A DNA stretch of 64,000 nucleotides, taken from the NCBI GenBank assembly GCA_963422645.2, contig CAXXVO010000004.1, forward strand, positions 256,001 through 320,000, written 5' to 3'. The notes beneath the pieces were generated by a model. It was not told the DNA's origin. It worked only from the letters and a program-made list of their open reading frames with translations, and searched no databases. Source of the stretch: Alphaproteobacteria bacterium. GTDB taxonomy: Bacteria > Pseudomonadota > Alphaproteobacteria > UBA828. This document shows, in pieces, positions 11,017 to 59,993 of this stretch. The translations under genes were made by a program, and so were the position numbers. Within the stretch, counting starts at the first letter, position 1, and each line of letters opens with the position of its first letter.

Positions 11017-11137
11017 TCGCGGCCTTCGTCGAGAAGCGCAGGCCAAGCTTCACCGGGCGCTGAACGATGGGCGCGCGCCTCGCGGGCAAGACCGCACTGA
11101 TCACGGCGGCGGGGCAAGGTATTGGCCACGCGACGGC
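11017..11137 (+). repeat. right copy of the island-flanking direct repeat
   Basis: Repeats the last ~50 bp of the crotonase gene and the SDR start. Confidence 0.92.
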
Positions 11138-11807: not shown

Positions 11808-11812
11808 CCGCC

Positions 11813-13999
11813 CTACTCTCCGGCCGCCGGGCCCCTGCTTCCGGTGAGCGCGGCCATCATGTTGTCGATCAGCCGCATGCCGATGTTGTCGTCGAGGGAA
11901 AGGATCGATTCCGGGTGGAACTGGACGGCGGCGATCGGCCTCTCCTTGTGCTCCAGCGCCATGACGACGCCGTCGTCGGTCTCTGCGGTGACCCTGAGCA
12001 GGTCGCCGGGGAGCGACACGCGCGCGGCGTATAGCGAGTGATAACGGCCGACGCGAAAACGCTCGGGCAAGCCCTGAAAGAGCGCGCTGTCCCTCACCGT
12101 GACGTCCGAGGGCTTGCCGTGGACCGGCTCGTCGAGCTGGCCGAGCTGCCCGCCGAAGTACTCAGCCACGGCCTGGAGGCCCAAGCAGACGCCGAAGAGC
12201 GGCACGCCCTTCGCCAGCACCAACTCGATGGTCTCGGCGGTGCCGAAATCGGTGGGCCGGCCGGGGCCGGGCGAGAGCACGACCAGATCGGGCGTGTCCT
12301 CTTGCAGCATCCGGCGCGCGGGCTCTGGCCGAAGCGTTTCGACCTCGGCGCCGGTCTGGCGCAGGTAGTTGGCGAGCGTGTGGACGAAGGAATCCTCGTG
12401 GTCGACCAGGAGCACGCGCCTGGCAGGCCCCAACTGGGCTGAGGTTGCGCGTACCGGTGCGGGCGCCGCCTCCGCCCGCACGGCGGCGAAGAGCGCCGAC
12501 GCCTTGAGCCGGCATTCCTCGTCCTCGGCCTCTGGTTCGCTGTCGTAGAGCAGCGTGGCGCCAGCCCTGATCTCGGCGATGCCGTCCTTCATGCGGACGG
12601 TGCGGAGCGTGAGCCCGGTGTTCATCGCGCCGTCGAAGCCGATGCGGCCGATGGCGCCGCCGTACCAGCGGCGTGCCGAGCGCTCGTTCGCCTCGATGAA
12701 GCGGATCGCCCAGTGCTTGGGCGCGCCGGTTACCGTCACCGCCCAGGTGTGGCTGAGGAAGGCGTCGAGCGCGTCGAATTCGGGCCGGAGGATGCCTTCC
12801 ACGTGATCGACCGTGTGGATCAGGCGTGAGTAGAGCTCCACCTGGCGGCGGCCGATCACCCGCACCGAGCCAGGCTCGCAGATGCGTGACTTGTCGTTGC
12901 GGTCGACGTCGGTGCACATGGTGAGCTCGGCCTCGTCCTTGGCCGAGTTGAGCAGCTTCGCGATCTGGGCAGCGTCGCCGAGCGCATCCTTGCCGCGCGC
13001 GATGGTGCCGGAGATCGGGCAGGTCTCGACCCGGCGGCCCTCGACCCGCACGTACATCTCGGGCGAGGCCGCGACCAGGAACTCGCCGGCGCCGAGGTTC
13101 ATCAAGGCGCAGTAGGGCGCCGGGTTGATGGTGCGCAGCCGGTCGAACACCGCGGAGGGCGCGTCGGCACAGGCTTCGCTGAACTGCTGGCTCAGCACCA
13201 CCTCGAAGAGGTCGCCCCGGCGGAACGCATCCTTCGCGCGGTCGACCGCCGCCGGATACTGGCCCGGCTCGTGGTCGTTCTCGGGCGGCTCGTTGCCGGG
13301 AAGTGCGGGCCTGTAGGCGTCTTCTCTCGGGTCACGCGCCATGTCGCGCGTGTCACCGGTGGACGTGACGAAATCGTAGCGATGCCGCACCGCCCGGTCC
13401 GACATGTGATCGACGACCAGGATCTCGTCGGGCACGAAGAGCACCAGGTCGCGCTGGTCGGCGGGGCGCTCGAGCTTGAGCTCCACCGGTTCGAACTGGT
13501 GGGCGAGGTCGTAGCCGAAGGCGCCGTAGAGGCCGAAGTGCTGGTCTTCGTCGTTGCCGAAGAGCTCGATGATCGCGCGCAGCAGGCTGAAGATGGAAGG
13601 CTGCCGGCTGCGCTGCTCCTCCGGCACGATCTCCACCGGCGGGTGGATCTGCCCGTGCAGGCGATCGCCCTTCGCTTCCAGCGACGCGACGGCGGCGAGC
13701 GGCTCGACGGCGGCGCGGATGGGCTCCAGCAGAACCCGGCCTCGGGGCTCCAGCGCCGCGACCTCGAAGTCGCGCCCGCGGCAGGTGATGGCGAGCGGCG
13801 GGGCGGCGAAGCCCAGATCCCAGCGCGTGTAGCGGCCGGGGAACTCGAAGCAGGAGGACATGAAGACGCCGGGATAGCGGTCCAGACGCTCGACCAGAGC
13901 CGCGGCCGCAGGGCCGACCGCCGTCTCGCGGTCGTTGCGGTGGATGGTGATGCCGCCGCGGGTGCGATAGCGGCGGTCGCTGGCGACGGGTTCGCTCAT
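11813..13999 (-). CDS. trpE: anthranilate synthase, fused components I and II
   Basis: GDLFEVV, PISGT, TVTGAPK and YGGAIG, plus a C-terminal GATase (SPGPG, GVCLG, RYHSL, QFHPES). Confidence 0.95.
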   Translation of the reverse strand: MSEPVASDRRYRTRGGITIHRNDRETAVGPAAAALVERLDRYPGVFMSSCFEFPGRYTRWDLGFAAPPLAITCRGRDFEVAALEPRGRVLLEPIRAAVEPLAAVASLEAKGDRLHGQIHPPVEIVPEEQRSRQPSIFSLLRAIIELFGNDEDQHFGLYGAFGYDLAHQFEPVELKLERPADQRDLVLFVPDEILVVDHMSDRAVRHRYDFVTSTGDTRDMARDPREDAYRPALPGNEPPENDHEPGQYPAAVDRAKDAFRRGDLFEVVLSQQFSEACADAPSAVFDRLRTINPAPYCALMNLGAGEFLVAASPEMYVRVEGRRVETCPISGTIARGKDALGDAAQIAKLLNSAKDEAELTMCTDVDRNDKSRICEPGSVRVIGRRQVELYSRLIHTVDHVEGILRPEFDALDAFLSHTWAVTVTGAPKHWAIRFIEANERSARRWYGGAIGRIGFDGAMNTGLTLRTVRMKDGIAEIRAGATLLYDSEPEAEDEECRLKASALFAAVRAEAAPAPVRATSAQLGPARRVLLVDHEDSFVHTLANYLRQTGAEVETLRPEPARRMLQEDTPDLVVLSPGPGRPTDFGTAETIELVLAKGVPLFGVCLGLQAVAEYFGGQLGQLDEPVHGKPSDVTVRDSALFQGLPERFRVGRYHSLYAARVSLPGDLLRVTAETDDGVVMALEHKERPIAAVQFHPESILSLDDNIGMRLIDNMMAALTGSRGPAAGE

Positions 14000-14118
14000 C
14001 GCGCCCTTATCCCACCTGCCGAGAGGGCCAACAACCCCGGCTGGCACGGCCACAGCCGCATAGCGGCCAGGCGATCAGCGCCTCAAAATTGCCTTGATGC
14101 CGGGCAACGATCGAGAGG

Positions 14119-15576
14119 GTGCACCGAGAGAGAGCCGGGCACACAGTGATCGAAGAACCCGACACCCCGACCGAGGAGCGACCGGCGCTCGTGCTTCCAT
14201 TTGTTCCGGAGCAGCGGCGGTCCATCGCTGCTTGCGCGTATGCCATGAGCGACAGCCTGATCGGCGGCTTCGACGCCGCCGACTTCAAGGAAGACATCAC
14301 CGAGCGGAAATTCCTCTGGTTTCACCACTTCCTGGTGAACCATCCAGACGGCGTGAAGCACGTCCTGCAGGACAACGCCGCAAACTACGTCAAGGCCGGG
14401 ATCGTCCGCCCGCTGCTGACGCCGGCGCTGGGGAACGGCCTCGTCACCATCGAAGGCGACGCCTGGCGCTGGCACCGCCGCATCATGACGCCCGCCTTCA
14501 ACGCCAAGAGCGTCGCGGGCTACGCCGGCATCGTGACCGAGGCGACCGACGCCACGCTGCGCGCATGGGACGAGGACGGGTCGGACCGCCCGCTCGACCT
14601 CGAAGACGCCATGAAGGAGCTGACCCTCGATATCATCGCGCGCGCCATGTTCTCGTCGGACAGCGAGCGGATAAAGGACACCCTTCACCGGAGCTCGACC
14701 AGCTATCAGGCGGAAATGAACCTCAGCCCCTTCGCCTTGATTCCGGGGATCAACCGCGTGTGGGCCCGTCTCAAGGAGCGGCGGGCGGCGCGGATTCTGA
14801 AAGACCTGAACGTCCTGATGGCGCAACTCATCGAATCGCGAAAGGCCCGATCCAGCGGGCCTTCGAACGACGACCTGTTGGATCGGCTCCTGCACGCGCG
14901 CGACCCGGAAACCGGACGCGGGCTATCGGCGAGCGACGTGCGCGACGAGATGGTCACCATCTTCGTCGCCGGGCACGAAACAACGGCGCTGGCGCTCTGC
15001 TGGACATGGTTCCTGCTGTCGCAGCATCCGGAGGTCGAGCGGAGGGTCTGGGCGGAAGTGGACGACACGTTGAATGGCGCGGCACCTACCTGTGACGATG
15101 TTCGCCGCCTGACATACACGCGCATGGTCTTCGACGAGGCGCTCAGGCTCTTCCCCCCGGTTCACTCGCTCGCTTGGCGCCAGGCGCTGGAGTGGGACGA
15201 GGTCTGCGGGCGCGCAATCCCTGCGGGCGCCATCATCGGCATCATCCCCTGGGTCATCCATCGCCACCGCGCGCTGTGGGACGCACCGGAGCGCTTCGAC
15301 CCCGCGCGTTTCTCGCCGGAGCGGGGCAACGAACATCCGCGTTGCGCGTACATCCCCTTCAGTGTCGGCCCGCGCTTCTGCATCGGCGCCTCGCTGGCGT
15401 TGACCGTGGGCGTCATGGTGCTGGCGCATGTGGCGCAGCATTATCGGCTGCGCCTCGCCCCGGATCAGCCCGTCGAACCGCGCGGGCTGCTCACGCTTCA
15501 CCCGCGCAACGGGCTCCTTATGCGCCGCATCCGACGTAGCGCTCAGAGGCGGCGCAGCTCAACCACGGACTCGTAG
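14119..15576 (+). CDS. cytochrome P450
   Basis: AGHETT, EALR, PERFDP and FSVGPRFCIG heme motif; start uncertain. Confidence 0.93.
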   Translation: MHRERAGHTVIEEPDTPTEERPALVLPFVPEQRRSIAACAYAMSDSLIGGFDAADFKEDITERKFLWFHHFLVNHPDGVKHVLQDNAANYVKAGIVRPLLTPALGNGLVTIEGDAWRWHRRIMTPAFNAKSVAGYAGIVTEATDATLRAWDEDGSDRPLDLEDAMKELTLDIIARAMFSSDSERIKDTLHRSSTSYQAEMNLSPFALIPGINRVWARLKERRAARILKDLNVLMAQLIESRKARSSGPSNDDLLDRLLHARDPETGRGLSASDVRDEMVTIFVAGHETTALALCWTWFLLSQHPEVERRVWAEVDDTLNGAAPTCDDVRRLTYTRMVFDEALRLFPPVHSLAWRQALEWDEVCGRAIPAGAIIGIIPWVIHRHRALWDAPERFDPARFSPERGNEHPRCAYIPFSVGPRFCIGASLALTVGVMVLAHVAQHYRLRLAPDQPVEPRGLLTLHPRNGLLMRRIRRSAQRRRSSTTDS

Positions 15577-16420
15577 AGCGCGCTCCCGTTGGCCTTTCCG
15601 GCACGGACGCTGGACTCGACGATACTGCTGCCGACCCGCGTCTCGCGGGGAACGTGGATGCCAGCGACGGCGAAGCCCCGCGTTTCGGCGATCGAGGCGA
15701 GGAAGCGGTCGGTCGGGATCGGTACCCCCTGCAGGATCGAGTTTCCGATCACCACCAGCCCTGTCGCGCCCGGCCGCAGGCACCGGGCCGCGCCGTCGAG
15801 GAAGCGAGCGCAGTCGTTGAAGTACTGTGCCGCGTAGTTGGCCCAGCCGTTGCCGCCATAGACGCCCTTGTCGGGGTTGCGCTGCCTGACGGCGTCGATC
15901 GCTTCCCTGATCTCGCCGTTGTCGATGGAGGGGTCGAGGTCGATGCGCTCTCGGTCGCGGGCGTTTTGCCAGTAGGTGCCGAAGTTGAGCGCCTCCAGGC
16001 GCTTCAGGTCGCGCGGAGAGCAGCAGAACCCCAGCCAGTAGAGGTGCGGGCGGGTGTTGCGGTTGTAGTGGTAGTTGTTGAGGTAGGGCGGGGAGGTGAC
16101 GAGCAGGTCCACGCTCCCCTCCTCGAGCGCGCTGTAGCCCTCGAAGAAGGATTCTTCGAGCACGCGCCCATCGTCTCGCGCAGGGTTCGCGCGCGTGTCG
16201 CGATACCAGGCGGCATCGTCCGCCATCTGGCGGAGCTTCGCCGCGATGGCGCCGGCTACGTCGTGGTCCTCGACCTCAGGGCGCCCGACCGAGGCCTTGC
16301 GCCCCAAACTCAGACTTCCTGACCTCGTGATGCTGGCTGTTCTGGGCAGCGTGCCGGGAACTCCTTGAATTCTGATACATTTCGGTTGTTTCAGGCGGTT
16401 TTTCGCTGGGTGTCGCGCCC

Positions 16421-16438
16421 GAGGTCTGATATTATAAT
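16421..16438 (+). promoter_or_regulatory. candidate ISX promoter: TATAAT -10 box beside an internal TIR-like motif GAGGTCTG
   Basis: TATAAT at 16433-16438, 28 bp before ATG 16467. GAGGTCTG is the reverse complement of CAGACCTC, which matches the TIR subrepeat. The -35 box is weak. Confidence 0.45.
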
Positions 16439-17137
16439 TTGATACCAATTGCACGGGGTCTCAACCATGCCCAGTACCCTCCCAATGTGCCCTCCAGAGG
16501 CGGTCTCGATCGGCAACAGCTGCTTCGCCGTCCTGATCTCGGACGACACCTTCACCTACTTTTCCAACCTCATTCCCTTTGACAGCCACGCCGCCGATGA
16601 CCGCACGGCCATGCTCTTGCGGATCGGCCGCCTCGCGGCGATCAGCGCGGTCTCGCCGCAGGAACTGGCTGACGCTTTCGCTGTCTCGCGCGCGACGGTG
16701 CAGCGCGCACGACGGCGCTACCTGGCCGAGGGCGAAGCGGGGTTCATGAAGCCCCGGCGCGGTCGCGGGCCGTCGGTGTTCACTCCGGAGTTGGCGGAGA
16801 AGGCGACGGCGTTGCTGGCATCGGGCCTGAGCGGCTCTGCGGCGGCCCGGGTTCTCGGCGTGTCAGCGCCATCGGTCAACAAGTGGCGCCGTCAGGGACT
16901 GATCGGCAACACGGAGGCGGATGGGGAGCCCGGACGCTCAGCGCTGGCTGCGCCGCCTGACGCGGGTGCGGCTCCTGAAGGCCGTGTCGATGAAGAGAGT
17001 ACCGGTGCCCCGGGGCCGGAGACGGCGCCGGGGCTGGAAGCGCAGCCGCAAACGGATCGCAGCGCGCGCGATCGGCGGGACCGGCAGGCGCCGATGGGGC
17101 GTGCGACTTGCGATGTTCCGGCTCGGGTTCTGGCCAG

Positions 17138-18188
17138 ACCGCTTATGCACATGGCTCCGGTTCGATCAACATGCTGTAGGTAAGGGGTTTTGCATTGGTG
17201 GCGATGCGGAAGAGCGAGCGGAAAGCAGCGTGGCGGGTTTTGCGGCGGTTGAAGCGAAAGGCGAACTCATCGAGATAGGCCTGCAGATGCTTGCGGCGCA
17301 GCCCGTGGTAGACGCCTCGCGCCCATCCTTTGAGGTTGGAGAAGACTTGGTGGATCCACGGCAGGACGAGGTGAGCGGCGGTCTTCCCGACGACATGGAC
17401 ATTGTGGCGATCGGCGGGGACCGCAGCGTAGCCGGACCAGCCGTCGGTTTTCGCGATGGCGTCGGGATCGGCGGCGGTTTCGACGAAGTGTCCGAGGTCG
17501 GCGGCGCCGTAGGAGGAGATTTCGGCCAGCCGCAGGCGGCCCGGGATGGTTCCATCCCCCAGTTCGATGGCGCCGACGATGAGCATCTTGCCGTCGTGGC
17601 TGCGTCCTTGCCCTCCGGTGGGAGGATCGTCTTTGGTCCGGAATGGAAGGCTGGCCTCGTCGATTTCCACCAGGCCCGACAACGGGTTGCGCTCGGGGTC
17701 GACCATGCTGGCGCGCAGCTTGTGGGCGAGCAGCCAAGCGCTGCGGTAAGAGCCGATACCGAGCTGTTTCTGGAGCTGCAGGGCAGAGATGCCGTTGGAG
17801 TGGGTCGCCATCAGGTAGGCGGCCCAGAACCAGACGGTGAGCGGCAGCTTGCTGGCGTGCAGGATCGTCCCGGCCGTCACCGAGGTCTGCCGGCGGCAGC
17901 CGGCGCACTCGAAGGTGTGTGCTTTTCTGCGCAGCGCCCATCCCTTTTCATGGCCGCACGCGGGACAGACGAAGCCGTCCGGCCAGCGCATTTCGATCAG
18001 CCAGGCGGCGCAGGCGTCATCGTCCGGGAACATGTGCTGGAAGGCGAGGAGGCTGTCGGCGACCTGTTTCATGTGGTGGCTCCGTCGGCAGGAACGTATA
18101 GGCAACATTCTACCCGTTCTCCCGCCCTAACCTCAACCTCAACATCTGGTGGCAAACTCTCGCGACCGGAGCCATGTGCATAAGCGGT
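17138..18188 (-). mobile_element. IS1595-family element
   Basis: 24-bp TIR ACCGCTTATGCACATGGCTCCGGT; 8-bp TSD CTGGCCAG; 1051 bp. Confidence 0.95.
17143..18072 (-). CDS. IS1595-family transposase
   Basis: RWPDGFVCPACG Zn ribbon, VEIDE, TDG and YLDEFAFRFNRR. Confidence 0.93.
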   Translation of the reverse strand: MKQVADSLLAFQHMFPDDDACAAWLIEMRWPDGFVCPACGHEKGWALRRKAHTFECAGCRRQTSVTAGTILHASKLPLTVWFWAAYLMATHSNGISALQLQKQLGIGSYRSAWLLAHKLRASMVDPERNPLSGLVEIDEASLPFRTKDDPPTGGQGRSHDGKMLIVGAIELGDGTIPGRLRLAEISSYGAADLGHFVETAADPDAIAKTDGWSGYAAVPADRHNVHVVGKTAAHLVLPWIHQVFSNLKGWARGVYHGLRRKHLQAYLDEFAFRFNRRKTRHAAFRSLFRIATNAKPLTYSMLIEPEPCA

Positions 18189-20471
18189 CTGGCCAGTTGT
18201 GGACAGGCGGGGCCGGTCGAACCGCAGTTCGCCGCCGCCGCCCGCGGTGTCCGCTTCGGCGGCGTGCTCGCCGCCCTGCCGGCCCTGCTGAAGGAAGGTC
18301 TTCTCTCCGAGACCGGTCTCCTGCCATTGCTGCCGAAGGGCTATTACGGCTTGCCTACGATCCTGCTCTTCCTGGCCTTCATGACCTTGGCGCGGGTGCG
18401 CAACCCCGAGAGCCTGCGCTACCAGGCGCCGGGCGAATGGGGCGCCATTCTCGGCCTCGATCGCTGCCCCGAGGTCAAGACGCTGCGCCGCAAGATCGCT
18501 CTCATCGCCGACGACGAGGCCGGCGTGCGGGCGTGGCAGCTCGCCCTTGCCAGGCGCTGGCAAGGCCGACGAGCCGGAGCTCTGGGCGACGCTGGCCATC
18601 GACGGGCACGTCAAGGTCTACTCCGGCCGCAAGGGGCGCTTGCCCAAGCACTTCGTCTCGCGCGAGAAGCTGTGCCTGCCGGCGAGCGCCAGCTACTGGA
18701 TCAACGCTCTGGGCGGCAAGCCGCTGCTCTGTCTGCACAAGCCGCTGGACCCGAAGATGGTCGCGGCCATCGAAGCCGACGTGGTGCCGGCGCTGCAGGA
18801 GCTTGGGATCGTTGGCGCCGGGGCGCCGGACCTGACCGCCGAGCATCCCGGCCAGCCGGCGCTCACCCTGGTCTTCGACCGCGAGGGCTGGAGCCCGGAT
18901 CTGTTCCGCCGGCTGGCGAGGCGCGGCGTCGCCTGCCTGACCTGGCACAAGAACTTCAGGGGCGAGGACTGGCCGGCCGAGGACTTCGGCGCGATGACCG
19001 TTCCCATTCACGGACCGGCGGCGGACGGCAGCGCCACCATGCGGCTGGCTGAGAAGCCGGTGACGTTGCCGAACGGCTTCAGGGTGCGCCAGATCCGCCG
19101 CCTGCTCGACAACGGCCGTCAGGTGCCGCTGATCACCACCGATCCGCACAAGCCGATGGCTGAGGTTGCGGGCGCCATGTTCTCGCGCTGGTCGCAGGAG
19201 AACTTCTTCAAGTACATGCGTGACGAGTTCAATCTCGACGCCCTGCCGACCCACGAGCTCGAGCCTCTCGATCCCGCCGCCATGGTCGTCAACCCGCTGC
19301 GGCGGGCCTATGACAAGGCAATCCATCGCCTCGACCGCCAGCTTGGCCGCCTGCGCAACCGCATCGCCGACACGGCCCGGAAGAAGCAGCCGACGGCGGA
19401 ACTCAGGAGGGAAGTCAGGGACCTCCAGGATGTCCGCGACATCGTCAGGGCCAGCCGCAGGGAGACGCCCAAGCACTGCCGGGCCGGCGACCTCGACGAA
19501 GCCGAGCAGCTCGATGCCTTGCCCGCGCGCGAGCGCCTCCTCCTCGACGTCATCCGGATGATCGCCTACCGCGCCGAAACCCGCATGATGCTTCCCGTCA
19601 TGCAGGCGCAGGGCCACAAGCCCCATCCCCGGAAACTGCTTCAAGCGCTGCTCACCGCCGATGCCGACATCCTGCCGGATCCTGGCAATGGCCTCCTGCG
19701 GGTCCACATTCTTGGCCTCGCAAACGACGCCTGCGACCGTTGGATCGATGCGGTTCTGAGCGACCTGAACGCCACCGAAACGGTCTTCCCCGGCACCCGT
19801 CTGCGCATAGTCTACGACATCGACGGGGCCTCGGAATCCGCGCGGCTCGTGTCACCTAAAATCAGCAGAGGTCAGGAAGTCTGAAACTCGGCTCGTAGGA
19901 GTAGTTGGAATAGCCCACCATGGTCGCGGCGAAGGCGAGGCGGAAGAGCGCCGCAACCGGCGCCTCCAGCGTCCCCATAAAATCGAAGGTCAGCAGCACT
20001 TTGCGCTCGACCGCCGGGCTGTAGAACGGCGCCCGTGTGCGGAAGGCTGCGGGAGGCGATGCCTTGGGCACGCGGCCCGTGCGCTCGCCTTCGTCCATGA
20101 ACGTGACGAATTCCGTGGCGGCGGCGCTGAGCCGCGTGGGCTCCAGCCGGTGCGCCCCCAGCTTCGCCCGCGCGGCGAAGGCGGCATAGGGATTGATCTC
20201 GAACCCGATGACCGCGTGGCCGGCGAAATCGGCCTCGACCAGCGTCGTACCGACGCCCGCGAAGGGGTCCAGCACGACACCCGGCTCCGGCAGGTGACGG
20301 GTCAGCGCGTCCTGGACGAATTGCCGCGAAAAACCCGCGATCCAGGGAACCCACCGGTGCACCGGCGTCTCCCGATTGGCCATGAAGGCGGGATCGCGGA
20401 AGGCCCCGCGGCCCTCCGCCCGGCCGGCGGAAGCGCTCACCGGCCGCGGCAGCACGCCGCCCCGCCGGCGG

Positions 20472-49669: not shown

Positions 49670-49785
49670 TGTTAAGCGTGGAAAAGTGACCCCCTATTGG
49701 GGGTGATCGGCGTCCAAAATTGACCCCCTTGGATTTGTGTCCATGAACACACCTCGTCGTTTGGACGGACGGGGTGGTGGGGGAG

Positions 49786-51300
49786 ATGCTGGTTGTGGAA
49801 ACGATCGCGAAGATCCGTCGGGATCATCTGGTGAAGGGCGTTCCGATCAAGAAGCTCGCCCGGGATTTGAGGGTTTCCAAGAACACGATACGCAAGGTGG
49901 TGCGGGGCGATGCGACCTCGCACAGCTACGAGCGCAAGATCCAGCCGATGCCGAAGCTTGGGCTGTGGGTGGAGGAGCTTGAGCGCCAGCTGAAGGCCAA
50001 CGAGAAGAAGGCACGCAAGGATCGGCTGTCTCTTCTGCGGATTCATGAAGACCTTGTGTCGCTGGGCTACAAGGGCGGCTATGACGCGGTTCGCCGCTAT
50101 GCCAGGGCCTGGCGGCGCCGGTGGCGGCTGTTGTCGCCGGCGCAGGCCTATGTGCCGCTGATCTTCGATCCCGGCGAGGCCTACCAGTTCGACTGGAGCC
50201 ACGAGTACGCGCGTCTGTCGGGCGCGACGACCAGGGTGAAGGCGGCGCACATGCGGCTGTGCCACAGCCGGATGTATCTGGTCCAGATCTTTCCCCGCGA
50301 GAGCCAGGAGATGGTCTTCGAGGCGCACGAGCGTGCCTTCCGCTTCTTCGGCGGGGTCTGCCGGCGGGGCATCTACGACAACATGAAGACGGCGGTGAGC
50401 ACGATCTTCGTGGGCAAGAAGCGGGACTACAACCGCCGCTTCCAGGAGCTGTGCTCGCACCATCTGGTGGAGCCTGTGGCGTGCACGCCAGGGGCTGGCT
50501 GGGAGAAGGGGCAGGTCGAGAAGCAGGTGGGTGACCTTCGCGGCCGCCTGTTCGTGCCCATCCCGCGGGGCCGCTCCTACGCCGAGATCAACGAGTGGCT
50601 GATGGATCGGTGCATCGAGGACGCCAAGAAGCATCCGCATCCGACAATCCCGGGCAAGACGGTGTGGCAGGTGTTCGAGGAGGAGCAGCCCTTCCTGATG
50701 GCGTATCGCGGCCCCTTCGACGGCTTCCATGCCAGCGAGGTGTCGGTCTCGAAGACCTGTCTGGTGCGCTTCGACAACAACCAGTACAGCGTCGCGGCCC
50801 GCGCCGTCGGCCGGCCGGTGGACGTGCGGGCCTATGCCGATCGGATCGTCATCCGCCAGGACGGCGAGACCGTTGCCGAGCACCCCCGCAGCTTCGGGCG
50901 CGGCCGGTTCGTCTACGATCCGTGGCATTACGTGCCGATCCTGACGCGGAAGCCCGGCGCGCTACGCAATGGCGCGCCCTTCAAGGACTGGCAGTTGCCC
51001 AACGCGCTCGGCCGCCTGCGAACCCGGCTCGCGGGCCACGACGACGGCGACCGGCAGTTCGTCAAGGTGCTCGCGGCGGTGCTGGAGGACGGACTGGAGG
51101 CGGTTGAGGCGGCCTGTGCCGAGACGCTCGACTGCGGTGCCTGCAGCGCCGACGTGGTGCTCAACATCCTCGCCCGGCAGCGCCAGCCGGCACCGCCGGC
51201 AATCATCCCGACGCCCGAGGGCCTGCAGCTTCGCCACAAGCCGGTAGCCGACTGTCAGCGCTACGACAGCCTGAGGGAGGCCGGTCATGGAGCGTCATGA
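49786..51300 (+). CDS. istA: IS21 transposase IstA
   Basis: [16 protein letters not shown] and EKGQVE. Confidence 0.95.
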
Positions 51301-52015
51301 TGTGCTGGAGATGATGACCCAGCTGAAGCTCGCAGGTATGCGCGCCGCTTACGACGACATCCTTGCCGACGGGCTCAAGCGCCGCCATCCGGTGCAACAG
51401 ATCATCGGTACGCTGCTGCAGGTCGAGATCGCCGACAAGAGGGCCCGCTCGATCAAGTACCAGATGGCCTCCGCCAAGCTGCCGACGGTCAAGGAGCTGG
51501 CCGACTTCGACTTCGCCGCCTCGCCGGTCAACGAGCCCCTGATCCAGGAGCTCGCCGGCGGCGGCTTCCTCGAGGGCAAACGCAACATCGTGCTGGTCGG
51601 CGGCACCGGTACCGGCAAGACCCATCTCGCCGTCGCCATCGCGCGGTCCTGCATCCGCAAGGGCGCGCGCGGCCGGTGCTACAACGTCGTCGACCTGGTC
51701 AACCTCCTCGAGGCCGAGCTTCGCGCCGGACGCCAGGGCCGCACTGCAGACCAGCTCGTCCGCCGCGACTTCGTCATCCTCGACGAGCTCGGCTACCTGC
51801 CCTTCGCCCAGGCCGGTGGGCAGCTGCTCTTCCATCTGATGAGCCGGCTCTACGAGCGCACCTCGATCGTCATCACCACAAACCTCGCCTTCGGCGAATG
51901 GCCATCCGTCTTCGGCGACCCCAAGATGACCACAGCGCTGCTCGATCGCCTCACCCATCATTGCGAGATCATCGAGACCGGCAACGAGAGCTGGCGCTTC
52001 AAGAACCGCTCCTGA
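51287..52015 (+). CDS. istB: IS21 helper ATPase IstB
   Basis: [16 protein letters not shown] and LLDRLTHH. Confidence 0.96.
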
Positions 52016-52946
52016 CCCGCCGCCGGCCTCCCTTGCGGCCCGGTTGCCCCGGTGGGCCAACCAATGGCATTCACTTAGCGGTTTTCGACTGTTCACTTAA
52101 GGAGTCGTGTTCTTGCGCTGTCGGTTGCGTGCGTTTCTGTCGTTCAGGTGTTCAGGCGACGGCCCGCTTTGCGCGTGCCCACTTGCCGCGGGGTTTGCGC
52201 GACCTGCGTTCGCAGGACCGGCCGGGGCGCGGGCGCTGACGCGCCTGGTTGATGCAGGAGAGGACATGGCTGAGGGTTTCGGCGACCATCGCCGTATGGC
52301 GCAGCAGCAGCGCTTCGAGGTTGCGCGCGACGGTGGCGAGGCCGTTGCTGAAGTTGGCTTTCATCGCCGGCTTGCCGTCGGCAGGGCGCTCGGCGTCGAG
52401 GCTTGCGTTGCTGCGGTTGGTGAAGAGCCGGGTCATGGCGATGAGGTTGAAGTGGGCGAAGAGCTCCTGGCGGACGCCGCGCTCGGTCTGGCTGTGGAAG
52501 GCCTCGACGGCCATGGCCTGTTTCGAGGTCTTGTAGAGTTCCTCGATTCCCCAGCGCGCGTGATAGAGCTCGGCCAGTTCCGCGACGCTCCAGGCCTTGG
52601 GGTCGAGGAGGGTGGTGGCGAGGATGAAGACCGTGCTGCCGATGCGGTAGCGGACCAGTCGCAGGCGCAGCGGGGTGGCGTCGACGTGCGGCGTCTTGCG
52701 GCGCAGCTTTCTCAGGGTGTCCTTTCCGGGAGCGACGGTGATCGGCGCGTCCGTGCGGCCGTCGGCGATGAAGGCGTCGAGGGCGGCGCCTGCCTTCTTC
52801 TTGATCCGGAACACGGGGTGCAGGCCGCGGGCGACATGGGCGTGCAGCATCTCCCAAGAGTAGTAGCCGCGGTCATAGACTGAGGTGGCCCCGGAAAATC
52901 GGACAGGTGTCTAAGGTGTATTCCACCGTCTGACGGAGGAATACAG

Positions 52947-53231
52947 ATGAGCAGCAAGCGACGCAGATTTTCAGGGCAGCTGAAGGCGAAGGTAGCGCTT
53001 GAGGCGCTTCAGGGTGATCGGACACTTCAGGAGATTGCCTCGAAATACCAGGTTCACCCGAACCAGGTGGGCGCCTGGAAGCGCCAGGCGATCAAGGGGC
53101 TGGGCGAGGTGTTCTCGAAGGGCGCCGAGGGTCGGGTCCGGGACCATGAGAGCGAGGTCCGCGATCTTCACGCCAAGATCGGGGAGCTGATCGTGGAGCG
53201 GGATTTTTTGTCGCGCGGGTCCGGTCGATGA
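52947..53231 (+). CDS. IS3 transposase OrfA
   Basis: KAKVALEA...HPNQVGAWK HTH; GATTTTTTG candidate -1 frameshift site near 53202. Confidence 0.9.
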   Translation: MSSKRRRFSGQLKAKVALEALQGDRTLQEIASKYQVHPNQVGAWKRQAIKGLGEVFSKGAEGRVRDHESEVRDLHAKIGELIVERDFLSRGSGR

Positions 53232-54163
53232 GCCGGCCGGAGCGCCGCGCGATGGTGGAGCGCGATCACCCGGCGCTGAGCCTGAGCCGGCAATGCCGCC
53301 TGCTGTCGATCGGGCGCTCCTCGCTCTACTACGCAGCGAAGGGCGAGAGCGCGGAGACCCTGGCGCTGATGCGTCGGATCGACGAGCTGTTCCTGAAGTA
53401 TCCGTTTTATGGCGCCCGCCAGATGGTCCGGCACCTGCGCCGCGAGGGCGTGCGGATTGGGCGCGGCCGGGCCGCTCGCCTGATGCGCCTGATGGGGCTT
53501 GAGGCGATCTATCGGGCACCGCGGACCAGCGCGCCGCATCCCGAGCACCGGGTCTACCCTTATCTGCTGCGGGGTCTGGCGATCGAGCGGGCGAACCATG
53601 TCTGGTGCGCCGACATCACCTACATCCCGGTGCGGCGCGGCTTCCTTTACCTGGTGGCGATCATGGACTGGGCGAGCCGGTACGTGCTGGCCTGGCGGCT
53701 GTCGAACACGCTGGACGCGGGCTTCTGCACGGACGCGCTCGACGAGGCCCTGGCTCGGCATGGCGCGCCGGAGATCTTCAACACCGATCAGGGCAGCCAG
53801 TTCACCAGCTTCGTCTTCACCGGCCGCTTGCAGGCGGCCGGCATCCGGATCTCGATGGACGGCCGGGGCCGGTGCATGGACAACATCTTCATCGAGCGGC
53901 TGTGGCGCTCGCTCAAATACGAGGCGGTCTACCTGCACGACATCGCCGACGGTTTCCAGGCCCGGCGCCTGATCCGTGATTGGATCGGCTTTTACAACGC
54001 CGAGAGGCCTCACTCGGCGCTGGGAGGGAGAACCCCGGCCGAGGCATACCGCGGCGAGACGCCTGTGGATATGATGGACAAGCCGCTACGCGCCTTGACC
54101 ACATCTCCACAGGCGCAACAGCAGCAACAGGAAGATCGATTCAAGAGGATCATGGCGGCCTGA
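53228..54163 (+). CDS. IS3 transposase OrfB (integrase core)
   Basis: WCADITY, NTDQGSQF and DNIFIERLWRSLKYE. Confidence 0.93.
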   Translation: MSRPERRAMVERDHPALSLSRQCRLLSIGRSSLYYAAKGESAETLALMRRIDELFLKYPFYGARQMVRHLRREGVRIGRGRAARLMRLMGLEAIYRAPRTSAPHPEHRVYPYLLRGLAIERANHVWCADITYIPVRRGFLYLVAIMDWASRYVLAWRLSNTLDAGFCTDALDEALARHGAPEIFNTDQGSQFTSFVFTGRLQAAGIRISMDGRGRCMDNIFIERLWRSLKYEAVYLHDIADGFQARRLIRDWIGFYNAERPHSALGGRTPAEAYRGETPVDMMDKPLRALTTSPQAQQQQQEDRFKRIMAA

Positions 54164-56304
54164 GAAACAACCGGAATACACCTTACCTTGGCCGCTAAGC
54201 TGTCCGAATAGGCGAGGCCACCTCAGACCACGATGTCGTTGGCCGAGAGCGCCTTGAGGTGGGCGAGGGCGGCCCTTCTTTCGTCGCCGTGCGCGACCAG
54301 GTCGAAGTCCACCGGGATGTTCGCGTGCAGCCGGTAGAGGCAACTCAGCAGGCCCTGCGGGTAGTGGGCCGCCTCGGAGGGCGTGCGGTAGCCGGCCTTG
54401 AGCAGCGGCCGCGGCAGGTTGAGCTTGGAGCCGTCGACCGCGAACACGCGGTGGCCCTTCCAGGCCGGGCCGTCGGCGCGCTTGAGGATCTCGGCGTGCA
54501 GCGTCTTGAACACCGCCTCGTCGACCTTGGCCCGCGCCATGCACATCGCCGAGGCCGAGACCGGCGCCGGCTGCGGCAGTGCGACGCCCAGGACCCGGCA
54601 CTGCTCCCACAGCCCGGCCAGCGTCGTGGCGTAGCCCGCGCGGCCGTTCGAGAACGCCAGCCGGAAGATGAAGAGCATGACGAGAAGGGTGTCGAGGACC
54701 CGCCGGCGGCTCTGCCACACCCGGTCGTGATCGGCGGCCACCGCCGCCAGTGCGCCGATCAGGTCCTGCCACAGCGCCACGAAGGGATCGTCCGGCGCCA
54801 GCGCTGCCGGCCGTGTCCTGTTCCCGCGCCGCGCCGGCCGCGGGCCTTCGAGCAGGATCGAGCGGAAGTCCGGCGTCAGCGGGTAGACGTAGACGCTTTT
54901 GCGGGTCTTGCCCTTGCCGCCCCCGGTCTCGCCGAGACAGCGCCAGTTGGCCGCGCGGTAGCAGGCGCCGTCGAAGAGGCTGGGGTCCACGAAGGTCTCC
55001 ACCAGAACCGGGCGCGCTCCGAAGCGCGCCTCCCAGTCGCCGGGCAGCTGGCGCAGCGCCATCGACAGCGCTTTCGACGCCAGGTTGTCGACCCGGACCC
55101 AGGGAAAGATCAGGAAACGCGTGTGACCCACGACCAGATCGAGGTGCTTGCGGAAGCCTTCCGCCGGCCACCCGATCCACTCGTCGCGGCAGGGCAGCGT
55201 GCGCGACGCCCGGGCAAACAGAAGGCAGCCCAGAGGCCGCCCGTGGCGGTCCAGGAGAAAATAGCGCAGATGCGCGCCGACCAGACGATGCAGCCCGAGA
55301 TAGTGGTGGCGCGCGACGAACTCGTTCCACAGCCCGCCCTCCTCCTTGCCCGCCGCAATCGACAGGCGCAGCGGCATCAGCGCGGCCAGGTCCTCCGCGA
55401 TCGCCGCGGCCGGCGCCGTCCGCTCGCTCCGGGCCATCGCCTCCTGCGGCCCCCGCACCTGCGCCTCGTCCCGCGCCGGCAGGGTCAGGATGCCCAGCCG
55501 CTCCAACTCCTCCAGCATCCGCAGGCAGACCGCGACACGGTTCCGCCCGCTCGGCGCGCGCCAGTTCAAATGCTCGCAGATCGTGTGCCCGAGCTCGTTG
55601 CGGCTGATCGCCGGAAACAGCGCCACCGTCTCCTGGATGTCGGCAATCTGCCGGCGGGTCAGACGTCTGCCGAAAAAGGTCGTCGACTTCAGCGCGGTGA
55701 TGCGGGGGTCCATGGGCCGGCTCCACTGACAGGGGGACAGCCACAGTGTGCCAAAGCACACGCCACCGGTCAATCCCCCTCGTGCGGGAAACGCCGAGAC
55801 CGACAATCCACACAAGAAATCAACTCGTTACGACACCACCAAAAAACCCCGGAACAATCTTCGCGCCAAATGAATGCCATTGGTGGGCCAACAGGGACCC
55901 CCCACGCGGCTTCGCTCCGCGTAGCGCAGGGCGCCACACGAAGCCGCGCGGGTCCCCCCTATTGGCTACCGGGACAACCTCCGCCGTGCCACTCAGGGGG
56001 GTCAATTTTGCACGCCGATCGGGGGTCAGTATTGAAAGCCGATTGACAATAGTGCACGCGAGGTAAGTGCCCGGGACGCCCGATTCGCCATGCTCCAGGC
56101 GTTGGAAGGCGTTGTGAGGCTTATCGCGGAACATCGTACTAGAGAACTAACGCCCGCTCAGATAATGGACTTGCGGGAGCTTCTTTGGAGCACGGAGACT
56201 GTCCGTCGCATGGTCCAAGAACGGGAACGGGTGCTGGCGGAGTTGGAGGATTATGGCAACATCTACCGATCTTTCGCTTCACTCAAATGGCTCGACCTAC
56301 CGCC

Positions 56305-56336: not shown

Positions 56337-56833
56337 CTAGCCCCCGCCGAAGTCCACCGCGCCATCATCGCGCATGGCTTCACGGATGCGGTGCGACAGA
56401 AACCAAGCTGACCGGACCGTCACGCCCAATGTGCGGGAGAGCTGGTTGCTGCTGATGCCCTTCTTGCTGCTGGTCATCAGGTAGATCGCCCGAAGCCACA
56501 GATGCAGTTCGATGTGGCTGTCTTCGAAGATAGTTCCGATGCGGACGGTGAACTGCTTGCCGCAGCCCTTGCACTTCTTGAGGCCGTGGCGAACCTTGCC
56601 CTCGGGATTCTTCTTCGACGGCTTGGAGCGGACGCCCTTCAACTCGTAGGCTTCGCCAACAACGCCGCACTTGGGGCAGGTCGGACCATCCGGCCAAAGC
56701 ATCGCCTCGATGTGGGCGAATGCGGCAGTTTCATCGTGCATGTAAGGTGCTGAAAGGGCTGACATTGTGGGGTCTCCGTCGCTACCCCACTAACACGGGA
56801 GCTCACTCATGGTTTGTCAATTGACATAACGCC
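56337..56833 (-). mobile_element. IS1595-family remnant (left end + transposase N-terminus) of a different lineage
   Basis: LWPDGPTCPKCG, CKGCGKQFTV and SAWFLSHRIR; end GGCGTTATGTCAATTGAC at 56833. Confidence 0.82.
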
Positions 56834-57010: not shown

Positions 57011-57526
57011 ATGAAATGCGACAAGCTCGTCGACGTCGGTCGGCGGCGATTCCTGCAAGGGGGGGCCGTGGCGGCCGGTGTGGTCACGCTGGGTGTCTCC
57101 CATTCGCCCGCCAAAGCGGCGCCCGCCGCAGCCAGGGTGGAGTATCCGTCGAACCGGCTGGCCAATATCGCCGAGCTGAAGGTGGATATGCCAATGGACA
57201 TCCACTACCCGGATACGGACAGCCCCGGCGTGCTGCTCAAGCTGGGTTCAGCCGTCGAAGGCGGGGTCGGTCCGGATGGCGACGTCGTCGCCTTCTCCGT
57301 GATGTGCCCGCACAAAGGCTGGCAGCTCCAATACAACGCCGGCGACAGGACTCTGAACTGCCCCGGGCATTTCTCGCGTTTCGACTGCGAGGCCGGCGGC
57401 CAGCAGACCTGGGGACACGCGACCCAGAACCTGCCGCAATTCGTGCTGCGGATTGACGACCAGGGCGAGATCTACGCCGAAGGCGTGGACGAGCTGCTCT
57501 ACGGCCGTCTCTCCAACGTGCTCTGA
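57011..57526 (+). CDS. aioB: arsenite oxidase small (Rieske) subunit
   Basis: Tat motif RRRFL, CPHKG and CPGHFS Rieske ligands, GHATQNLPQ. Confidence 0.93.
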   Translation: MKCDKLVDVGRRRFLQGGAVAAGVVTLGVSHSPAKAAPAAARVEYPSNRLANIAELKVDMPMDIHYPDTDSPGVLLKLGSAVEGGVGPDGDVVAFSVMCPHKGWQLQYNAGDRTLNCPGHFSRFDCEAGGQQTWGHATQNLPQFVLRIDDQGEIYAEGVDELLYGRLSNVL

Positions 57527-57539
57527 GGGAGGCGATCAG

Positions 57540-59993
57540 ATGGCTTACAAGCGACAAGTCGACCGTCTGCCGATCATCCCCGCAGACGCCAAGGAGCAAA
57601 ACGTCACCTGCCACTACTGCATCGTCGGCTGCGGCTACAAGGCGTACACGTGGCCCGTCAACAAGCAGGGCACGGTCACGTCGAACAAATTCGGCGTGGA
57701 CCTGAGCAAGCAGCAGGACCAGGAAACCGAGTTCTGGTACGCGCCCTCAATGTACAACATCGTCCAGCAGAACGGGCAGGACGTGCATCTGGTGATCAAG
57801 CCGGACGTCAATTGTAGCGTCAACTCGGGCCTCGGCTCGGTGCGTGGCGCCCGCATGGCGGAGAACCGCCGTTCGGATGTCACCGGCACCCAGCAGCAGC
57901 GGCTCACGGAGCCGATGGTCTGGCGTTACGGCACGTGGCAGCCGACCTCGTGGAACGATGCCCTCGACCTGGTCGCCAGGGTCACCGCCCGTTACATCGA
58001 CAAGGACAACGAGGACGATCTCTACGTCTCGATGTTCGATCACGGCGGCTCGGCGGGCGGCTACGAGAACACCTGGGGCACGGGCAAGCTCTACTTCGGC
58101 TCGATGAAGGTCAAGAACTGCCGGATTCACAACCGGCCGGCCTACAATTCCGAGGTGCACTCGACCCGCGACATGGGCATCGGCGAGCTGAACTACTGCT
58201 ACGAGGACTACACGCTCACCGACACGATCTTCCTGATCGGCGCCAATCCCCTCGAGACCCAGACCAACCTGTACCTCAACCACATGGTGCCGGGCATGAG
58301 GGACGGCGCCCGCGTGATCATCGCGGACCCGCGCCGCACGGTGACCGTCAACGCCTGCGAGCAGGTGGCCGGCGCCGATCACGTGCTGCATCTGGCGATC
58401 AACTCGGGCACGGATCTCGCGCTCTTCAACGCGCTCTTCACCTACATCGCCGATCAAGGCTGGGTGGATAGCGACTTCATCGCCAACTCGACCTTCCAGG
58501 GCGGCGAGGCGCAGGCGCAGGGTACGGCGCATCCCTGTGCGCTCGGCTCCTTCGAGCTGGCGCGCGAGGCCTGCCGCATGTCCACCGCCGAGGCTGCCGA
58601 AATCTGCGGCGTCGCCGAGGGCGATATCGTCAAGGCGGCGCACTGGATTGCGGAGCCCAAGTCCGACGGCTCGCGCCGCAAGTGCGTGAGCGCCTACGAG
58701 AAGGGCATCATCTGGGGCAACGACAACTACCGCACCGTCGGCGCCCTGGTGAACATCGGCCTCGCCACCGGCAATATCGGCCGCGAGGGCGGCGGGGTGT
58801 GCCGTCTTGGCGGGCATCAGGAAGGCTATTACCGGCCGCCCGACGGCCATGTAGGCCGGCCTGCGCCCTATGTCGACGACCTGATCATCAAGGGCGGCGG
58901 CAAAGTCCACCACATCTGGGCCTGCGACCACTACAAGACCACGCTGAACGCCACCGAGTTCAAGCGCGTCTACAACAAGCGCACGAACATGGTGAAGGAA
59001 GCGATGGACGCGGCGGCGGGCAAGACCCGCGACGAGCTGGTCGACGCCATCGGTGCGGCGATCGAGGCAGGCGGCCTCTTCTCGGTCAACGTGGACATCA
59101 TCCACAGCCAAATCGGCCAGGCGGCCCACGTGATCCTGCCTGCGGTCGAGTCCGGCGAGATGAACCTCACGTCCATGAACGGCGAGCGCCGGATGCGCCT
59201 GGTCGAGAAGTACATGGACGGCCCCGGATCGTCGCAGCCCGACTGCTTGATCGCTGCCGACATGGCGCAGCATCTCGAGCGTGTGCTGAACGGGATGGGC
59301 AAGGCCGACTACGCGGCGCAGTTCCAGGGCTACGACTGGGCGACCGAGGAAGATGCCTTCATGGACGGCTATCACCAAGGGAATCCGGACGTCACCTACG
59401 ATCGGCTTCGCGCCATGGGCAACAACGGGGTTCAGGAGCCTGTCGTTGGCTATAAGAACGGCCAGTTGGTCGGCACCAAGCGCCTCTATGCCGATGGCAC
59501 TTTCGGCACCGGAGACGGCAAGGCCCGGTTCTGCGCAGGCGCGTGGCGCGGCCTGCAGGCGCCGGGCAAGGAGGAGCAGAAGGCCAAGTTCACGTACCTC
59601 ATCAACAACGGCCGCTCCAACATCAACTGGCAGAACTGGTTCCTCGATCAGGACAACGACTTCGCCACCGACCGCTATCCCTATCCCTTCATCGAGATGA
59701 ATCCGGATGACATGGCGGCGGTGGGCGTTGGCGCCGGCGACCTGGTGGAGGTCTACAACGACGACGGTGCGACCCAGGCCATGGCGTATCCCACGCCGAC
59801 GGCGAAGAAGGGCGAGACTTTCATGCTCTTCGCCGCGCCGACCGGCACGCAAGGCAACGTCATAAACAACGGGACCAACGAGCTGGTGCTGCCCAACTAC
59901 AAGCAGACCTGGGCCGACATCCGCAAGCTCGCGGAAGCTCCGGCGACCGTGTCGCATCTCTCCTTCAAGTCGAAGGAGTACAGTCCGGGGTAA
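57540..59993 (+). CDS. aioA: arsenite oxidase large molybdopterin subunit
   Basis: CHYCIVGC 3Fe-4S motif, GGYENTWG, HNRPAYNSE, YEKGIIWGNDN and GGHQEGY; B-before-A gene order. Confidence 0.93.
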   Translation: MAYKRQVDRLPIIPADAKEQNVTCHYCIVGCGYKAYTWPVNKQGTVTSNKFGVDLSKQQDQETEFWYAPSMYNIVQQNGQDVHLVIKPDVNCSVNSGLGSVRGARMAENRRSDVTGTQQQRLTEPMVWRYGTWQPTSWNDALDLVARVTARYIDKDNEDDLYVSMFDHGGSAGGYENTWGTGKLYFGSMKVKNCRIHNRPAYNSEVHSTRDMGIGELNYCYEDYTLTDTIFLIGANPLETQTNLYLNHMVPGMRDGARVIIADPRRTVTVNACEQVAGADHVLHLAINSGTDLALFNALFTYIADQGWVDSDFIANSTFQGGEAQAQGTAHPCALGSFELAREACRMSTAEAAEICGVAEGDIVKAAHWIAEPKSDGSRRKCVSAYEKGIIWGNDNYRTVGALVNIGLATGNIGREGGGVCRLGGHQEGYYRPPDGHVGRPAPYVDDLIIKGGGKVHHIWACDHYKTTLNATEFKRVYNKRTNMVKEAMDAAAGKTRDELVDAIGAAIEAGGLFSVNVDIIHSQIGQAAHVILPAVESGEMNLTSMNGERRMRLVEKYMDGPGSSQPDCLIAADMAQHLERVLNGMGKADYAAQFQGYDWATEEDAFMDGYHQGNPDVTYDRLRAMGNNGVQEPVVGYKNGQLVGTKRLYADGTFGTGDGKARFCAGAWRGLQAPGKEEQKAKFTYLINNGRSNINWQNWFLDQDNDFATDRYPYPFIEMNPDDMAAVGVGAGDLVEVYNDDGATQAMAYPTPTAKKGETFMLFAAPTGTQGNVINNGTNELVLPNYKQTWADIRKLAEAPATVSHLSFKSKEYSPG

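Follow-up and report, generated by a model that had tools for sequence, protein, structure and literature searches.

A DruA-family GNAT module with a predicted fold nearest to phage Mu Mom, fused to an IS4-family transposase in an alphaproteobacterial genome

Background

Transposases are usually viewed as only cutting and joining DNA, and in the IS4-family elements IS10 and IS50 the adenine marks at the ends are supplied by the Dam methylase of the host. Whereas those elements are marked by a host enzyme, the IS4-family insertion sequence described here may carry a marking enzyme of its own. It was found at positions 52062-55882 of a 64,000-nucleotide stretch of the genome of an alphaproteobacterium of the lineage UBA828 (contig CAXXVO010000004.1; the whole stretch is called the window below). 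Its transposase of 737 amino acids (aa) carries an N-terminal module of the family DUF4338, which Pfam names DruA, and the solved structure nearest to the predicted fold of this module is that of Mom from phage Mu. In the 2018 work of Doron et al., DruA of Druantia type I was reportedly located in an operon with druB-druE; we know of no function assigned to it.

Mom is reported to be an anti-restriction enzyme that takes glycine from Gly-tRNA(Gly) and attaches it to the N6 position of adenine in double-stranded DNA (PMC13219725), with R111, S124 and R151 as essential residues and H58, Y59, D149 and Y159 in the active site. A precedent for joining such a domain to an enzyme that cuts DNA is found in jumbo phages, where Iyer et al. 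(Viruses 2021, PMC7824862) describe Mom-family domains fused to nucleases. There, as here, a Mom-family GNAT stands in one chain with a DNA-cutting enzyme, but the partner is a restriction-type nuclease in the phages and a DDE transposase in the present case, so that the logic predicted for the phages (guarding their own DNA and cutting foreign DNA) need not hold for a transposase fusion. DUF4338 is named a GNAT domain in a paper from the Aravind laboratory (PMC10853773). No literature connecting DUF4338 or DruA with transposases or with Mom was found in a search of incomplete coverage that did not include supplements. The IS4 family is known already, and the pairing of the two domains is visible in public annotation.

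A broken copy of a fused transposase gene

The region 52062-55882 is one broken copy of a 2474-bp IS4-family insertion sequence, whose transposase gene is split by an IS3-family element two residues ahead of the catalytic D498. The parts of the element, with the evidence for them in brackets, are as follows.

52052-52061: target-site duplication, left copy, GTGGGCCAAC, 10 bp (identical to 55883-55892)
52062-52080: terminal inverted repeat on the 3' side of the transposase gene, CAATGGCATTCACTTAGCG (17/19 against the other end)
52152-52877, minus strand: C-terminal transposase piece, residues 497-737 and stop, with D498, E608 and Y601-R604-E608-K615 (identical to P0001, see below; DDE_Tnp_1 match)
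52878-52880: GAC, 3-bp duplication from the IS3 insertion (second copy 54226-54228)
52881-54225, plus strand: IS3-family element, 1345 bp, splitting the transposase gene between V496 and Y497 (ends, Pfam)
52947-53231: IS3 orfA
53228-54163: IS3 orfB
54226-54822, minus strand: N-terminal part of the DDE core, residues 298-496, including D427 (module-less relatives align from 298-335; NF033592)
54847-55392, minus strand: predicted GNAT domain, DruA/DUF4338 family, Mom-like, residues 108-289 (Pfam PF14236, AlphaFold, VIA-align, Foldseek)
55474-55713, minus strand: small N-terminal helical domain, residues 1-80, start codon 55711-55713 (model; weakly winged-helix-like)
55864-55882: terminal inverted repeat on the 5' side of the transposase gene (inverted-repeat analysis)
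55883-55892: target-site duplication, right copy, GTGGGCCAAC, 10 bp (sequence)

A reading made from the sequence alone had proposed that removing the IS3 element and one GAC copy restores a single 737-aa open reading frame (ORF) with the junction DIVVYDRGYY, inside an element with terminal inverted repeats and a 10-bp target-site duplication. All of this was borne out. Both minus-strand gene pieces (55713->54226, 496 aa; 52877->52155, 241 aa, with the stop reaching to 52152) are letter-identical to residues 1-496 and 497-737 of P0001, the single intact 737-aa ORF of an uninterrupted copy (L002, G000:C5:386152-388625), and the predicted junction is therefore exact. When intact copies were sought through their ends, they were found to contain one gene and not two. 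The inverted ends, read from the sequence, are 19 nt long and imperfect, with 17/19 positions alike and CAATGGCATT as the outermost bases; CAATGGCATTCA stands at 52062-52073 with its inverse at 55871-55882, and the 10-bp direct repeat GTGGGCCAAC borders the element on both sides. The observation is confirmed as real, well beyond chance expectation. The interrupting IS3 element has the inverted ends TGAGGTGGCC.../...GGCCACCTCA, and its ORFs match Pfam HTH_Tnp_1 (E 2.9e-11) and rve (E 2e-23).

The 737-aa protein is composed of a helical domain (residues 1-80), a GNAT domain (108-289) and a complete IS4 DDE transposase (298-737). The assignment of the N-terminal part to DUF4338 and of the remainder to an IS4 DDE core, also made in the sequence-only reading, was upheld by profile searches: Pfam DruA (PF14236) matches residues 88-272 at E 1.3e-31 (110.3 bits against a cut-off of 27), Pfam DDE_Tnp_1 (PF01609) matches residues 418-639 at E 8.4e-21, and the NCBIfam equivalog NF033592 'IS4 family transposase' reaches 156.9 bits against a cut-off of 115 over residues 367-647. 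Every motif named earlier is present, namely HHYLG (136-140), RDEWIGW (176-182), TRFLIFPW (198-205), LASKALS (211-217), ETFVD (239-243) and GACYRAANW (249-257) in the module, and AVDGS (425-429), DRGY (498-501) and YHARWGIE (601-608) in the transposase part. The catalytic D427, D498 and E608 are all intact in the uninterrupted copy, and Y601, R604, E608 and K615 within YHARWGIEELYKTSK form Y-(2)-R-(3)-E-(6)-K around the catalytic glutamate, which is the signature of the IS4 family.

Relatives from plasmids that have no module align from residue 298-335 to the end of the protein (Robbsia, 41% identity over 298-729; ISPa1635, 30%), and since they align only from there, residues 298-737 are a complete IS4 transposase and residues 1-297 an addition. 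The element thus shares DDE_Tnp_1, NF033592, the Y-R-E-K signature, inverted ends and a 10-bp duplication with IS4-family elements such as IS10, IS50/Tn5, ISPa1635 and that of Robbsia (L113), and differs from them in an N-terminal extension of about 297 residues that has an enzyme fold; this extension explains its size of 2.5 kb as against 1.4 kb. No record in the plasmid collection spanned 80% or more of the 737-aa protein, and a sequence search of solved structures with the protein gave just a chance match to a DARPin (E 0.059).

Predicted structure and candidate active site of the module

Residues 1-300 were modelled with AlphaFold on an alignment of 71 family members, which share down to 32% identity with the query, and the model had a mean predicted local distance difference test score (pLDDT) of 94.9. 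When this model was compared with the Protein Data Bank by Foldseek, phage Mu Mom ranked first (8bv8_B, E 1.8e-5), ahead of numerous GNAT acetyltransferases (139 matches in all at E <= 0.001). VIA-align also placed Mom first (8bv8_A against model residues 108-289, Z 15.1, 17% identity, root-mean-square deviation 3.4 for 162 residues), the runner-up having Z 13.1 and other GNATs forming a plateau at 11.9-12.7; the 50 entries listed span Z 11.9-15.1 and are, with few exceptions, GNAT acyltransferases. The module is thus predicted to have a GNAT fold with Mom as the nearest solved structure. In a viral fold search the module returned phage proteins named 'endonuclease-like' or 'homing endonuclease'.

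The residues of the candidate active site were paired with those of Mom by hhalign, using a 10-residue numbering offset. The family alignment against 25 Mom sequences gave E 0.0045 over 121 columns with a probability of 7.8%, and the alignment with Mu Mom alone gave E 0.024 over 49 columns. Pfam Mom (PF25680) scored 11.6 bits against a cut-off of 27.1 (E 0.22) in the same region. With the hhalign probability this low and the Pfam Mom score below threshold, the pairing draws on a weak alignment and the fold ranking only. In that weak alignment Mom H58, Y59, R111, S124, D149, R151 and Y159 pair with H137, Y138, R199, S213, D243, L246 and Y252, giving putative counterparts for six of the seven active-site residues, those of the essential R111 and S124 included. 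Conservation among the 71 members is high at R199 (71/71), H137 and Y252 (70/71 each) and S213 (67/71); D243 is aspartate in 50/71 and glutamate in 14 more. Position 246, leucine in the query protein, is arginine in 37/71 and lysine in 10/71. R176, D177 and W182 are almost invariant and have no counterpart in Mom. We read the module as holding a conserved Mom-type active site, in a weak alignment that leaves one essential residue unmatched.

In GNATs the pyrophosphate of acyl-CoA is bound by a loop Q/R-x-x-G-x-G/A between strand 4 and helix 3. The corresponding segment of the module is W-V-R-V-D-N-L-A-S (family consensus PWVxVxNLAS, with no conserved glycines), and the consensus of the 25 Mom sequences likewise has no conserved loop glycines. 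The likeness of the DUF4338 domain to Mom that the sequence-only reading had stated is borne out by the fold ranking and by putative, conserved counterparts of the key residues. The acyl-CoA pocket that it expected is probably the wrong criterion, since the glycine-rich loop is absent and Mom is reported to use glycyl-tRNA (PMC13219725). In summary of this comparison, Mom (PDB 8bv8) and the module share the GNAT fold, putative counterparts of H58, Y59, R111, S124, D149 and Y159 and the lack of a glycine-rich CoA loop; the module differs in falling under the Pfam Mom threshold, in having leucine in place of R151, in its additional N-terminal helical domain and in being fused to a transposase, whereas Mom is a free late phage protein.

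Residues 1-105 were also modelled alone (pLDDT 89.1). Foldseek gave no match at E <= 0.001 for this part, and the list returned by VIA-align was dominated by winged-helix DNA-binding domains with a best Z of 6.0, within the noise of the tool. The N-terminal domain is accordingly called winged-helix-like with low confidence, the label being weak because a Z of 6.0 falls in the noise range. Its conserved residues are G15, C46, W51, G56, L67, G74, L78 and P79.

Comparison with the DruA of Druantia

The equation of DUF4338 with DruA in the sequence-only reading holds for the Pfam family and fails for the Druantia-type protein. The module belongs to PF14236, as does DruA of Druantia type I (PADLOC PDLC00001/2). 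No PADLOC family matched P0001 at E <= 0.01, whereas a control DruA in genome G319 gave E 4.4e-80. P0001 and the PADLOC-positive DruA are 18% identical, with the R-D motif (R176, D177) and S213 common to both, and the PADLOC-positive protein lacks the N-terminal GRxFT domain and the ETFVD and CYRAANW motifs. The gene described here lies within an insertion sequence and has no druB-E neighbourhood. Membership of Druantia was rejected on these grounds (no PADLOC model match, 18% identity, and an insertion-sequence context in place of a druABCDE operon). As there is no PADLOC match, identity is 18% and motifs are missing, the term 'DruA-like' is valid at the broad level of the Pfam family only.

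The control gene has a setting of its own. In G319 (L033, G319:C1:2588000-2607900, ORFs 10622-18742, minus strand) the PADLOC-positive DruA lies directly downstream of genes for a tniA-like protein, TniB and TniQ, and is followed by an unassigned ORF of 404 aa and by an AAA/HerA-like ATPase; the canonical druB-E set is not present there.

Occurrence of the fusion and of other transposase partners

The fusion is neither rare nor particular to the window locus, and forms a large family that is already annotated. A search of 90%-identity clusters, in which 8000 candidates were scored, gave at least 1304 proteins at E <= 0.001. The best 120 of these 1304 clusters all contain both Pfam domains in proteins of 680-886 aa, with 51-64% identity to the query (100% for its own cluster). 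Few of them bear a name, and where one is given it is 'IS4 family transposase' or 'Druantia protein DruA/Transposase DDE domain'. The module alone has 7023 representatives at E <= 0.001 among 50%-identity clusters, and of 401 genomes sampled from the phylum, 24 contained PF14236. Named genomes with the fused gene, often in many copies, belong to the Gamma- and Alphaproteobacteria, Bryobacterales, Desulfobulbaceae, Planctomycetaceae, Anaerolineae and Legionellales.

Identity to the query is nearly equal for module and DDE core (for example 59/63%, 52/49%, 47/47% and 42/42%) among five loci compared (L034, L056, L070, L082 and L085), indicating that the module is constrained as strongly as the transposase.

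The module also has other partners. Two representatives (P0270 and P0298) carry it at the C-terminus of IS66 transposases. In the genome of the window, a 3532-bp IS66 element (C13:253005-256536; L018:1505-5036) encodes a DruA-like module as a separate ORF of 292 aa behind an 812-aa transposase; the two ORFs overlap by start and stop in ATGA, and the DruA-like ORF appears to be translationally coupled to the transposase. This element has inverted ends of about 48 bp starting with GTAATGC and 8-bp duplications at three copies, and further copies are present in C6 and C8. At other loci the next gene after the module encodes a DDE_Tnp_1_assoc or UPF0236 protein, and in one Atlas cluster 42% of the members combine it with Tnp_DNA_bind. 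P0206 (594 aa) has the module fused to the catalytic domain of an adenylate/guanylate cyclase. From these arrangements the module appears to travel between transposon families and to have been joined to them repeatedly and independently.

A further broken example is found on the Thiodictyon plasmid pTs485 (L011, NZ_CP020372.1 282572-287344), where the two parts stand as separate coding sequences, a 'DUF4338 domain-containing protein' and an 'IS4 family transposase', with an integrase gene and one for an IS91 transposase between them; two flanking DUF2235 coding sequences look like the halves of one gene. Stand-alone modules were found in three Desulfobacterales metagenome-assembled genomes (L100, L107 and L109), in a neighbourhood that they share and that is not a transposon: L100 and L107 have a TPR-SPOR protein upstream of the module, whereas in L100 and L109 a PEP-CTERM protein is encoded downstream. 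The stand-alone form may be a domesticated one.

Recognition of the element ends

The relative from Robbsia (L113:1461-2887) is 1427 bp long, has no module, and carries CAATGGCATTCGGTTAAG at both ends (18/18) with the same CAATGGCATT tips as the window element. Since a relative without the module has the same ends, the DDE part recognises the ends and the module is an accessory; the possibility that the module is an end-binding domain was ruled out on the same evidence. Nineteen end loci were chosen from the 79 returned so as to cover different genomes. The exact AATGGCATT was present in 15/19, a form with 1-2 changes in 2/19, and in the remaining 2/19 the motif was not found by simple search, one of them having no inverted repeat and the other a different repeat. 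The first 10 nt of the ends are thus kept among relatives from other phyla.

Elements of several phyla whose transposases have no more than 41-61% identity retain these 10-nt tips, CAATGGCATT (L034-L094), as does the module-less relative. The tip motif contains the palindrome AATG-N-CATT, and tip conservation of such length is unusual for insertion sequences.

Possible function of the module

The sequence-only reading had suggested that the transposase modifies DNA in cis, and this remains plausible. In the reading we tentatively prefer, with a probability of roughly 0.45, the module is an active Mom-like transferase that is held at the DNA of the transposase and modifies a base there, the mark serving the element. 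This preference stems from the conservation of the Mom-type site, from a constraint equal to that of the transposase and from fusions in both orders; the nuclease fusions of Mom domains in jumbo phages (PMC7824862) add a precedent. The fusion would hold the transferase at the transposase's DNA; fusion in both orders to unrelated transposases suggests action where the transposase sits. The enzyme would add an acyl or aminoacyl group to a base of a nucleic acid; the likeliest site would be N6 of adenine in duplex DNA, with an aminoacyl-tRNA as a more likely donor than acyl-CoA. The mark could tell modified ends or targets from newly replicated or inserted ones, as Dam methylation does at IS10 and IS50, or it could confer target immunity or shield the excised element from host nucleases.

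Several observations weigh against an active base-modifying transferase. L246 stands where Mom has the essential R151, at a position with R or K as the family consensus, and both the hhalign probability and the Pfam Mom score given above are poor, the latter lying far under its cut-off. The helix-turn-helix-like insertion of Mom has been reported as essential. A shared fold does not fix the substrate; the authors of Mom themselves state that structure could not predict its substrates (PMC13219725). Relatives such as that of Robbsia transpose without the module. The stand-alone modules of Desulfobacterales lie in conserved non-transposon neighbourhoods, so the function of the module need not concern transposition. 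We found no DUF4338 protein with a demonstrated modified base, substrate or donor.

Proteins or small molecules are the substrates of most characterised GNATs, and the module might likewise act on the transposase, a nucleoid protein or a polyamine and so tune transposition to the metabolic state. The best structural matches after Mom are N-acetyltransferases of proteins and polyamines, among them NatF, RimI and SpeG (Z 11.9-13.1), and strongly conserved residues would suit any catalysis. We nevertheless consider this unlikely: both structural methods rank Mom highest, the conserved residues have their specific partners in Mom, and V-x-N-L-A-S replaces the glycine-rich acyl-CoA loop. The leucine at position 246, the small weakly winged-helix-like domain in front of the module and the relatives that work without it would also fit a non-catalytic binder or sensor of DNA, charged tRNA or an acyl donor, which would regulate, dimerise or target the transposase. 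Such a role seems less likely still, as invariant or near-invariant R199, H137, S213, Y252, R176 and D177 in the 71 members are hard to explain without chemistry, and the DDE part already supplies end recognition.

The module could also be cargo that merely rides on transposons, an enzyme that marks DNA genome-wide and helps the host or the element against phages or restriction systems, as DruA may in Druantia and Mom does for Mu. Cargo normally consists of separate genes, however, while the module is in one chain with the transposase in the best 120 of the 1304 clusters and, in the IS66 fusions, follows the transposase instead of preceding it. Cells usually make very little of an insertion-sequence transposase, which suits local over genome-wide action, and P0001 has no PADLOC defence-model match. 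What speaks for the cargo explanation is that the Pfam family includes the DruA of Druantia, that a PADLOC-positive DruA directly follows tniA-tniB-tniQ in another genome, that stand-alone and cyclase-fused forms of the module exist, and that Mom itself is an anti-restriction enzyme (PMC13219725); on balance we regard this explanation as quite improbable.

A wider form of the base-marking reading is more speculative and, in our judgement, unlikely as a whole: the helical domain and the Mom-like GNAT would form a portable module, captured repeatedly by unrelated DDE transposons (IS4, IS66, ISAs1-like and UPF0236/ISLre2-like elements). With it the transposase would write an aminoacyl-tRNA-dependent base mark on its own ends or targets, and this mark would control when and where the element moves. 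If this were true, the mark would take the part that host Dam methylation plays at IS10 and IS50, and transposition would be linked to the availability of charged tRNA.

What the observations provide is a large, active and phylogenetically wide group of transposases with a second conserved enzyme domain whose nearest relative modifies adenine in DNA. To our knowledge no transposase writes a base modification, and the module, if it does so, would be the first. It would then give the tRNA-dependent chemistry of Mom a second biological setting and offer a hint at the role of DruA in Druantia type I. The idea can be tested directly now, as assays for Mom exist and the residues to target, R199 and S213, are known. 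If the module does not act on DNA, its repeated capture by several transposon families still needs explaining. The interest of the system is moderate at present and would be high if DNA modification by the transposase were shown.

Copies in the genome and surroundings of the element

The genome of the window comprises 5.9 Mb in 23 contigs. It contains ten uninterrupted full-length copies of the IS4-type element (2472-2478 bp, 99.7-100% DNA identity) in addition to interrupted ones. A perfect 10-bp duplication was present at 12 of the 17 end pairs examined, and the other five look like exchanges between copies or have a flank common to another copy. The element is multicopy and has moved recently.

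A second mobile element of this genome is associated with the module gene. It is 2818 bp long (G000:C10:178473-181290; L012:1774-4591) and encodes only a 736-aa large serine recombinase with Resolvase, Recombinase, Zn_ribbon_recom and C-terminal HTH_17 domains. Seven full and six partial copies were found (99.9-100% identity), others being located in C5, C6, C8, C13 and C14. In every copy checked it adjoins DruA-like coding DNA at the codons for the conserved motif V-E-T-F-V-D, in both the IS4-type and the IS66-type elements, and it seems to parasitise the module gene in a site-specific way. A group II intron had been considered for this 2.8-kb insert and was rejected, as there was no Rfam match and a serine recombinase is encoded instead.

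In the window the elements are nested at three levels over 49705-56048, with the IS3 element in the IS4-type element and the latter in an IS21 element, where it sits between istB and the right-hand repeats. The neighbours of the element are the IS21 genes and arsenite-oxidase-like genes. The IS21 genes are the following.

49774-51300: istA of IS21
51287-52015: istB of IS21 (IstB_IS21, E 3.2e-75)

The end repeats of IS21 at 49705-49731 and 55994-56020 are 93% complementary, and an extra direct repeat (56021-56043) lies beside the right one. Another end of the IS4-type element, at C5:26079, has on one side a flank equal to the IS21 flank in the window. A 28-nt inverted repeat with a 24-nt loop (55887-55966, 79% complementary) lies in the tail of IS21, just beyond the right end of the IS4-type element. 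Beyond IS21, a short ORF at 56337-56765 (minus strand) contains only the zinc ribbon of an IS1595-type transposase. Next to it, at 57011-59993 (plus strand), lie genes for a Rieske protein and for a molybdopterin oxidoreductase of 846 aa that contains a Rieske_3 domain, a pair that presumably resembles the small and large subunits of arsenite oxidase.

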